NCBI GenBank assembly: GCA_002269645.1
Contig: NIVC01001192.1
Coordinates: 134,163 to 198,162, forward strand
DNA from: Macrostomum lignano
Lineage: Eukaryota
Direction: 5' to 3'
DNA length: 64,000 bases
In this document: piece by piece, positions 4,971-7,900 of the stretch
Layout of the letters: every line of letters starts with the position of its first letter
How positions within the stretch are numbered: the stretch's first letter is position 1
Program-made: the position numbers and the translations under genes
Notes under the pieces: model-generated
Seen by the model: only the letters and a program-made list of their open reading frames with translations
The model's database searches: none
What the model was told of the DNA's origin: nothing

Positions 4971-7900
4971 TTAACGAGGTCTTAGGTTGTACGTATGACC
5001 GACAGGTGGTGCGTTTGTTGTTTGTGTTTCGGCGTGTGCAGTGGCAATGTGTTTATTTGTTGTTTTTGTGTGGTCTGGATTTTGTAGGTCTGGGAGGAAT
5101 GTAGTGTCGTTAGTGATACGTTTTAGACGTTGAATGTGAACATAGAACTGAGGTTGATGTGGATCCTGGATATTAGCGAGGCGTGCTGATACTAGAGAAG
5201 GCTTAGGTAGGTCTCGCTTATGTCGTTCTATGACATCTTTTCTCTGATAGGTTCCATTTACTACCTTCAGGAAAACATTCTTATCCATATCCTTAAGCGC
5301 GATTGGTATTTCTTGGTCGGAGAGGATTAGTTGCTCGTCCTTGTTTTTACATTTCAAGTGTGTGTAGCTTGGTTGCTTTGGAAATGTAAGAGCCAAATCT
5401 CCTGAGTCGGCAAGGAAGGTGTTAGATAGCAGTTTCCCTTGAACAGTGTGATATTTTTGCAGCTTGCAGTCAATTTCAGTTTTTACTTCCCATGCAGTGA
5501 AATATTTGCGGGTTCGGCTGGGCTCCTCATATCGGGAATCCGATCTATATTCAATTTGGTATCGATAGTCATGGAAATAAATCGGTGCTAGGGGTAAATT
5601 TTGAGCTTCTTCTTTGTTGTAGTTAGGGGTAGAACAATATCCAGAGCTGTAGTGACACTGGTCGAGTGGTAGCTGTAAGGATTCCATGTTGTCAAATGGA
5701 TTGTGGTAGAATAAAACATTTCGGATGAGGTAGCTATTGTAGACTGAGTATGTAGGCCATCGTGATTGATGATAATGGACATATCTTCCATCGGCTACAT
5801 TTTTTGTGCGAAATAGCTGTGCTCCGCTGGCGGACGTCTCATGAAGTTTTAATTGACCATCTTCGGAAAACAGAGTTTGATTCCACCGAAGGCATTCTTC
5901 TTGTGATACCATCATCGAAGTTTGCCAATACCTGATTCGGTTCCATTGTACCAGCCAAACCTTTTCAATTTCATCCTTGTCTCGGAAGCACACAATTCCC
6001 ATTTGTCGATGCTTCTTTGTATTTGCTTTGTATATTTCAATAGTTAGTGGTAGTGGCTTGGTTTGGTTTGTCTTAAAGTAACTGCATTTGATTTCCGTAG
6101 GAATCTTGTAAATGACTGGCTGGATGTCTCCATCAGTGGGACAGATCATTGGAGATGGAGACGGCAGTACCGTGGGAACAATTGCCATCATCAAGATCGT
6201 GAGGAAGCATTGCAGTAGCGGATGTTTTTTCTTTCGTCTTGTTGGTACTGGTGGAGTGTCTTCAATCTCGTCATGACTATCTTCAGGATACGGCGGAGGA
6301 GTAAGGCGAGTCGAAAAGTGCCATTTGTTAGAACATGGTAATGGTGTGGGTGGCTGCGATTGCAACATCGGACGCATAAAGTTGGTTGATTTTGATATAT
6401 TGGTAAGATGTGTAGTTGTATTCTCATCAGTTGGAGTGTTAACCGGTTCCATTATTGTTATCGGTTCATCATATTCGCTTTCATAGTCTAGGTTCATTGA
6501 AACATATGTGTCATCCTCCGTCTGTACGAACTTTTCATCTGTCGAATGGTTAGATTGTGTGTTCGTGGCCTTGTCATGTTTCCATTTTTCGTGGACTGGA
6601 CTAGGGGAGACAATATTTTCATAGTCTGGTTCCTGTGTTGGAGGTGTTTCTGACAGGTCTATATCGTCGACTAGGACCTGCAACATGTCAACGCTTTCTT
6701 CAAAGATGTTTTGAGAAGTTGCTGGATCTCTGTCTTCTTCAAGTGTTGTCATTTCTTTACGATCCTGGAAATTGTCATCTCGGTGAGTTTCCGAAAGATT
6801 GTCGATCGTCGGAACTTTAAATAGATTGCTTTGTTGCTTAGAAATAGTTTGTTGTTGTCTTTTGTTTTCTCGGAAGACTGGACTTGCTTTAGAAGAGGTA
6901 GGAATGGGTGGATCTTCTTCAAACAGAGAATCCATCATGCAGCTACTTTCGCTGCTTGTGCTATCTTTTCGTTTTTCAAACTCCTCAAGGACATTGATTG
7001 TGAAATCCGGCATAAGATCCTCTATCTTAAACTCTGGTTCGATGACTTGAGTGTATTCCGGTTCAATAGCTTGAGCATATTGTCTGCGGACCTGAGTAGG
7101 CTGTCTTGGAGGAGGAGGATTTCTTTGTTGTCGATAAGGTACCAAGGCATTTCCTTGTCTATTCTGTGGTGGGTTCCAATTGCGATTTTGAGGACGAGTC
7201 CAATTTTTTCTTCTGTTGTCATTATATTGTCTTGGATTGCCACGTGATCGGCAGTCTCTGGTGTAATGACCAATTCTTCCACAGGTGTAACAAGTGGGTG
7301 GCGGAGCGTATCTCTGTCGCTGTGGCATGATTGCAGAAGTTTGGTACTGCTGCATGAGTTTGCTCAATTGTTCTCCCAATTGTGTCGTATCACTACTACG
7401 AGAAGTCAGGAGTGGGGCACTTGCTTCCCATTGTATGCCGCAACGAATTAATTGTTCCTCTGTCTCAATGGTTTCTCTTAACAACCTGTCTCGCAGCGAA
7501 GGTTGAGCATTATTAATGACATGGAGGATTAGGCTTTGTTCTTGGTCAGCAAGGCGTTGTCTTTCTCGTGCAGCTAGTTCTGCTGGTCCGATAGGCTGAG
7601 CTCCTGGGTTCGGTGGTGGTGGCTGGTGCAACGCTTTAATAATTTTGCGGACGTCATCGACGAAAGTAAGGAAGGATTCCGTCGGACTCATTTTTCGATT
7701 ATGAAGTTTGTGTAGAAGCACAGATCGATTGGTTCCACATCTGGCGAATTGTGCTCTCAGTTGTGTAACTAAAGTATGATAGTCTTGCTGTGCGGCGGCA
7801 TTTAGTTTGCCATAAATTTCTCGAGCAGTACCTTCTAACAGTGGAGGAAGAAGAAGTGCCTTTTCTGGATTTTGTAGTCCGTATTCGCGAGTTACAAGGT

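Follow-up and report, generated by a model that had tools for sequence, protein, structure and literature searches.

The 64,000-nucleotide (nt) stretch of Macrostomum lignano DNA analysed here (the window; GenBank assembly GCA_002269645.1, contig NIVC01001192.1, positions 134,163 to 198,162 of the forward strand) carries on its minus strand a long terminal repeat (LTR) element of 6874 nt, whose open reading frame ORF1 joins Gag to half of a viral-type envelope protein (Env). Judged by its alignment with related chains, ORF1 is the result of an in-frame internal deletion at nt 5186-5178, by which the second half of Env, its transmembrane segment (TM) and nearly all of Pol are gone. Most probably, the element is a non-autonomous deletion copy of a Gag-Env-Pol retroelement that makes a non-fusogenic product and moves only with the enzymes of intact relatives. 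The initial annotation of this DNA had described a Gag fused in frame to the N-terminal half of a rhabdovirus-G-like class III fusogen that ends without an anchor. All the motifs that it listed were found in a single minus-strand frame at confirmed positions, and ORF1 is laid out as follows:

4971..7997, minus strand: ORF1, 1008 amino acids (aa), ATG at 7997 and stop at 4971; Gag, linker, signal-like segment, half Env, integrase tail
7248..7997, minus strand: Gag, with a capsid-like region and a CCHC zinc knuckle at aa 235-250 (Pfam zf-CCHC, E 4e-5)
6288..6299, minus strand: PPPY at aa 567, a candidate late domain at chance level
6162..6239, minus strand: RRKKKH (aa 587) and hydrophobic aa 594-612, the predicted internal signal or anchor of Env
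5187..6161, minus strand: half Env, gB-type class III, aa 613-937, predicted domains I and II
5214..5225, minus strand: RHKR, furin-type site, aa 925-928
5178..5186, minus strand: in-frame deletion junction, aa 938-940, where env switches to integrase
4971..5177, minus strand: integrase C-terminal tail, aa 941-1008, terminating in YNLRPR

The relatives used for comparison come from a phmmer search with the env piece plus tail as query and 1.84 billion representative proteins as target, which gave 23 matches at the cut-off of E<=1e-3; counts of env relatives keep 21/23, P0018 being dropped as a spurious match on account of its Ig domains and P0006 because it contains integrase alone. Against these, the frame passes from env to an integrase C-terminus within a few residues. 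In ungapped counts, aa 929-937 agree with env at 5/9 positions and with integrase at 1/9, aa 938-940 at 2/3 and 3/3, and aa 941-961 at 0/21 and 17/21, respectively. The stretch 934-1008 is 66% identical to the C-terminus of the integrase P0006 (rve, Integrase_H2C2), and the YxLR terminus is common to P0005, P0006, and P0011. P0004 matches on both sides of the junction, its env being 62% identical to ORF1 829-940 and its integrase end 69% identical to ORF1 934-977; between these two matches it has 265 further ectodomain residues with four cysteines, a TM, and a protease. The span of P0005 that corresponds to the gap in ORF1 is about 1,545 aa. Thus, the missing TM anchor is explained by the in-frame deletion. 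RHKR, called furin-like in the initial annotation, aligns with the furin site of Epstein-Barr virus (EBV) gB and with RRRR of P0004, and the want of an anchor behind it is confirmed: the 80 residues past RHKR hold no hydrophobic stretch, and ORF1 has only one hydrophobic 19-mer, whereas its relatives have a second hydrophobic segment (P0004 at 2536, P0005 at 1483, P0012 at 1367, P0020 at 1042). The notion of a glycoprotein ectodomain truncated near the furin site stands insofar as env ends ten residues past it; the last ~70 residues are the C-terminus of an integrase, not envelope.

Neither the env piece nor the integrase tail has a match in Pfam, and tblastn with the Pol proteins of the relatives found no protease, reverse transcriptase (RT), RNase H, or integrase core in the 64 kb. 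Read contigs were compared from 4 of 24 listed runs, and their depth was used to estimate neither copy number nor expression. A 2320-nt contig with 0 differences, present in runs X1 and X4 from two studies, spans 4925-7244 and bridges the junction, which rules out an assembly artefact. A frameshift into a downstream TM or Pol is also ruled out, as the ORFs downstream are RING-like and gave no tblastn match.

The fusion of Gag, signal, and Env is, on the evidence of aligned chains, the normal layout of the family, because Gag and env are joined in one chain in 10/21 env matches (nine by BLAST to the ORF1 Gag and P0011 by its zinc knuckle) and a hydrophobic segment lies ahead of the PMxC start of Env in 15/16 relatives checked (four of them a single Meloidogyne cluster; the P0020 cluster is from Meloidogyne). 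The remaining env matches lack a Gag match, and most are short. Neither the env domain, in view of its relatives and its class III fold, nor the hydrophobic segment, in view of its recurrence ahead of PMxC, is put down to chance. P0005 is a single chain of 2852 aa that runs through Gag, a hydrophobic segment at 659, Env, the TM, protease (PR), RT, RNase H, and integrase (IN), with its Pol in the gypsy order PR-RT-RNase H-IN. P0005 and two near-copies are M. lignano proteins, and its Gag is 30% identical to that of ORF1. Word-based protein searches returned P0003 as the only match, or nothing. In ORF1 the hydrophobic aa 594-612 reach a Kyte-Doolittle 19-mer score of 2.06, the runner-up having only 0.61, and SPSPMICP, the start of the Cys-containing Env domain, begins directly after them at aa 613. 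The n- and h-regions of the signal-like segment are present and conserved; the region is Pro-rich here, where relatives carry small-residue (cleavage) motifs. Differences among reads over ORF1 fall on the third codon position in 13/16 of those listed (within the 40 best-supported of 671 rows), a bias that stems from mixed relatives and is uninformative on the deleted copy.

The Env half carries a class III fold of the gB type according to an alignment-based model, which folds confidently into a domain I fusion module with bipartite loops and a PH-like domain II; model hairpins and the profile alignment place the predicted fusion loops near aa 681-685 and 742-748. ORF1 stops at profile position 422 of a gB match that extends to 599, and the domain III central helix and domains IV and V, which make up the trimer core, are missing from it and present in P0004 and P0005. 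The class III assignment made in the initial annotation is thereby upheld, the structure and profile comparisons that it called for having found viral glycoproteins. Its rhabdovirus-G-like label is not, since solved rhabdovirus G structures score below gB against the model; a rhabdovirus-G identity drawn from the VSQEEC look-alike was rejected, the fold being nearer gB. The top rows of the BFVD structure comparison include the glycoproteins of Keturi virus and Nyavirus. PF24664 matches 7/22 relatives scanned at E<=1e-3, and the Pfam scan of ORF1 gave no match to it; an Atlas similarity of 0.86 to a PF24664 cluster is a lead only.

The element around ORF1 has the hallmarks of an errantivirus, namely, LTRs, a tRNA primer-binding site (PBS), a polypurine tract (PPT), and a target-site duplication:

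8364..9280, minus strand: 5' LTR, 917 nt, TG...CA, with TATAAA at LTR position 275 and AATAAA at 423
2407..3323, minus strand: 3' LTR, 917 nt, 0 differences from the 5' LTR
8350..8361, minus strand: PBS, 12 nt, starting 2 nt past the 5' LTR
3324..3338, minus strand: PPT, preceding the 3' LTR
2403..2406 and 9281-9284, no strand: target-site duplication, 4 bp
8588..8897, minus strand: intron in the LTR leader, GT..AG, 310 nt

Its target site is unoccupied at 19659-19662, in a tandem host duplicate whose sequence is 99.96% identical to the left flank of the element across 2406 nt, and again near 29396, from which the insertion is judged to be very recent. No tRNA gene was found in the window. The intron is marked by a read-contig joint at 8587-8898 in X1 and X4, which is not listed in the other two runs, and the same stretch is also present in the 3' LTR. 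No run is recorded as RNA, and the RNA status of X1 and X4 is a guess for which this GT..AG joint is the sole backing; that only these two runs show such a joint inside the LTR suggests RNA as their source and minus-strand transcription of the element. As both LTRs retain the intron, genomic RNA must escape splicing there. At 7215-7244, just past the zinc knuckle, contigs break in both of these runs, with depth about 3.5 times as high on the Gag side as on the env side; this step hints at a Gag-only variant or transcript, contig depth being a poor measure. The 8-mer CCCCGTGT occurs on the minus strand at 2456, 4947, 8136, and 8413, i.e., once close to the end of either LTR, once in the leader, and once directly past the ORF1 stop, with one further occurrence elsewhere in the window. 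A diverged relative in the read contigs retains the stretch 4887-4954 despite unlike flanks. The 8-mer is a possible packaging or translation signal without an Rfam match, the single Rfam match obtained (E 0.29) being far below the cut-off.

In the intact family, we propose that the internal signal would send Env into the lumen of the endoplasmic reticulum (ER), with Gag staying in the cytosol, and that the second TM would return the chain such that protease and Pol face the cytosol beside Gag. Cleavage of Env by furin would then leave two halves joined by disulfide bonding, as in gB. For gB itself, the available part of PMC6893419 describes the disulfide linkage of the furin halves and a trimer built by the helices of domains III and V. 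In the deleted copy, Gag and the signal would be made normally, and the luminal part would consist of domains I and II and a scrap of integrase. Lacking the anchor as well as the crown, the arm, and the helix at the centre of the trimer, the product would neither trimerise nor fuse and would be degraded or shed without function. Cys 619 and 638, which we take to pair as in gB, presumably lose their partners; a literature search found no confirmation of this pairing. The likely cause of the deletion is a template switch at a short sequence common to both sides. With its LTRs, PBS, and PPT retained, the RNA of the element would be copied in trans by a helper because the element has no enzymes of its own.

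Several observations weigh against this reading. No near-identical, full-length parent turned up among the protein relatives; the nearest full ones reach 62-69% identity, and the gene model behind P0004 is patchy. A DNA contig from runs X6 and X17 departs from the element at 5185 and rejoins it at 3364; it may be a full-length relative, which would confirm the breakpoint, or it may be another truncation at this very point, in which case a hotspot or selection would gain weight. The ORF1 frame is open and apparently transcribed, and the junction contig is unbranched in X1 and X4, which suggests that it is the deleted form that is expressed. Where the retained piece ends, a natural domain boundary and the furin site are both close by, and its fold is modelled confidently; selection for a soluble fragment would give the same outcome. 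As to the fold, the profile of the N-half alone matches gB weakly (E 0.12-0.57), the Foldseek TM-scores are 0.33-0.43 with high rmsd, and the model leans on aligned relatives, the single-sequence AlphaFold run having failed (pLDDT 29.5) and single-sequence PDB searches having given chance matches only. Part of this evidence would suit a selected defective-interfering or decoy protein, in which the Gag-signal-domain I+II chain is cut by signal peptidase and furin, and binds membrane or receptor through its fusion loops or poisons the Env trimers of the helper, while the element spreads in trans. The second joint at 5185 and the unbranched junction contig fit such selection, as do the in-frame end ten residues beyond the furin site and the confidently modelled fold that keeps both predicted fusion loops. 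However, an in-frame outcome is expected by chance for one deletion in three, the domain III helix needed to join trimers is missing, the attached integrase scrap points to accident, and an env-to-integrase join was found in none of the 21 env relatives, many of which are fragments. We hold this explanation to be unlikely. A broader version of it, in which a defective-interfering flatworm endogenous retrovirus combines a selected deletion giving Gag and a shed, furin-trimmed decoy module with captured RING E3 genes directed against host defence and takes its Pol from intact siblings, likewise seems improbable.

A different origin for the same frame would be the reverse transcription and insertion of a subgenomic RNA from which splicing had removed the lost part as an intron of the parent transcript; Gag-half-Env may then be a regular product of the intact element. 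The reading frame is preserved, an AG lies before the junction on its 5' side, and the element RNA is spliced elsewhere, yet the LTR intron persists in both LTRs, the departing DNA-run contig matches two bases beyond the AG, which is unfit for a GT donor, and env and integrase of the relatives have residues in common at the join, a requirement for a template switch. Such an origin is very unlikely. The proposal of the initial annotation that an anchorless Gag-Env fusion is dedicated to tethering capsids to membranes, with PPPY driving ESCRT budding, gains from the conservation of the basic and hydrophobic segment ahead of Env, by which membrane tethering of Gag is plausible family-wide, and from motifs resembling late domains that some relatives carry in Gag or in the linker (PPPY in P0012, PPRY in P0003, and PSAP in P0005/P0026/P0027, three copies of one relative). 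As for PPPY as a late domain, the motif is present in ORF1 but is indistinguishable from chance, arising in 5-15% of shuffles of the same stretch, and is absent from the closest relatives: none is found at the corresponding place in P0003, P0004, or P0005. PPxY occurs upstream of Env in 2/19 relatives (P0003 and P0012) and is missing from the linker of P0004, the closest full relative; 15% of shuffles give one. Moreover, the element encodes no Pol to package, and an evolved special architecture is contradicted by the integrase tail and by the TM of intact relatives. This use of the fusion is therefore hardly credible, and the deletion copy dependent on intact relatives is the account that we prefer.

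Between the integrase end and the 3' LTR (3517-4839) lie two further frames:

4189..4839, minus strand: ORF2, 216 aa, Cys-rich, RING-like, a paralogue of ORF3 (E 3e-13)
3517..4116, minus strand: ORF3, 199 aa, tandem RING-type zinc fingers (Pfam zf-C3HC4_3, E 7e-8, above the cut-off)

ORF2 has no RING match in Pfam. Its Atlas similarity to RING clusters is 0.88, and the neighbours of the pair are viral RING proteins at 0.85-0.89, which is a lead only. Read-contig joints at 4792-4886 and 4955-5050 suggest that diverged relatives keep the same arrangement of the two. The two are possibly captured E3-ligase accessory genes. A limited literature search found no description of such a RING-like pair, nor do the available parts of PMC12801592 and PMC5408684 contain one.

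The element sits inside one unit of a host tandem array (1-32700 and 38000-55200), with a unit of about 10.4 kb followed by more diverged copies, which encodes a single-pass membrane protein without a clear Pfam family. Elsewhere in the window, cytochrome P450-like exons, judged by translation alone, lie at 58665-61408 and are broken up by simple repeats. Fragments at 35698-36225 and 12386-12742 are, by their motifs, presumably of a mariner transposase and of a GIY-YIG endonuclease (Penelope-like). Satellite arrays of 25 nt and 35 nt are found near 16.3-17.4, 26.7-28.0, 37.4-38.3, and 13.4-13.9 kb.

Among known systems, the nearest are the GAG-ENV-POL errantiviruses with gB-type env, which the available part of PMC13524379 places in Nematoda, Bryozoa, and Platyhelminthes and in which env ectodomains are flanked by a signal and a TM or by two TMs. 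The element shares with them the order Gag, gB-type Env, Pol (here an integrase C-terminus) in one frame and the predicted signal or TM at the start of Env. It differs in lacking the Env C-half, TM, PR, RT, RNase H, and integrase core, in its length (6.9 kb versus about 10.6 kb), and in the two RING-like ORFs that follow the integrase end. Without an intact Env and Pol, it is a derivative rather than an intact errantivirus. Nematode elements of this kind have reportedly been treated by Sacco et al. in 2022. PMC13524379, in its available part, lists Platyhelminthes_Rhabditophora_Mlig_errantivirus_2 of M. lignano, with 16 copies; its 12-nt PBS is identical to that of the element (as the reverse complement), and its LTR is about 864 nt, compared to 917 nt here. 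Truncated elements were removed in that study, so the deleted copy would not be listed there. The Env of the element is only 25-27% identical to that of the 2852-aa M. lignano protein, which marks it as a separate subfamily. The literature search on gag-env-pol retrotransposons found nothing beyond PMC13524379, with none on Macrostomum LTR elements with env and none on nematode metaviruses, and the available part of PMC12801592 does not mention env.

Herpesvirus gB (EBV 3fvc, herpes simplex virus [HSV] 2gum, human cytomegalovirus [HCMV] 5cxf) resembles the Env half in the fold of domains I and II, the first two cysteines, and the furin site, at about 10% identity, and differs in having domains III-V, TM, and tail. 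The Monjiviricetes glycoproteins (PF24664; nyamivirus, chuvirus, and rhabdovirus G) have the class III fold in common with it, differing as seen in the missing PF24664 match and the lower score of rhabdovirus G. Thus, the striking lead of an anchorless Gag-Env is removed: the architecture is not new but the product of a deletion in a known element type. The intact relatives are single polyproteins in which Env would pass through the ER between Gag and Pol; the available part of PMC13524379 does not discuss this topology. A subfamily that has been mobile recently, appears to be transcribed, and carries two RING-like ORFs offers, in what is probably a laboratory flatworm, a setting for the study of how invertebrate retroelements spread outside cells. 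The available part of PMC5408684 mentions deletions mediated by microhomology. More broadly, the element falls in with a general class. Non-autonomous internal-deletion derivatives of LTR retrotransposons, like this element, keep LTRs, PBS, PPT, and Gag, lose Pol, and insert afresh. It departs from ordinary members of that class in its open frame through half of Env and in its two extra RING-like ORFs, and this RING-like pair is a more unusual feature of the element than the anchorless Gag-Env.
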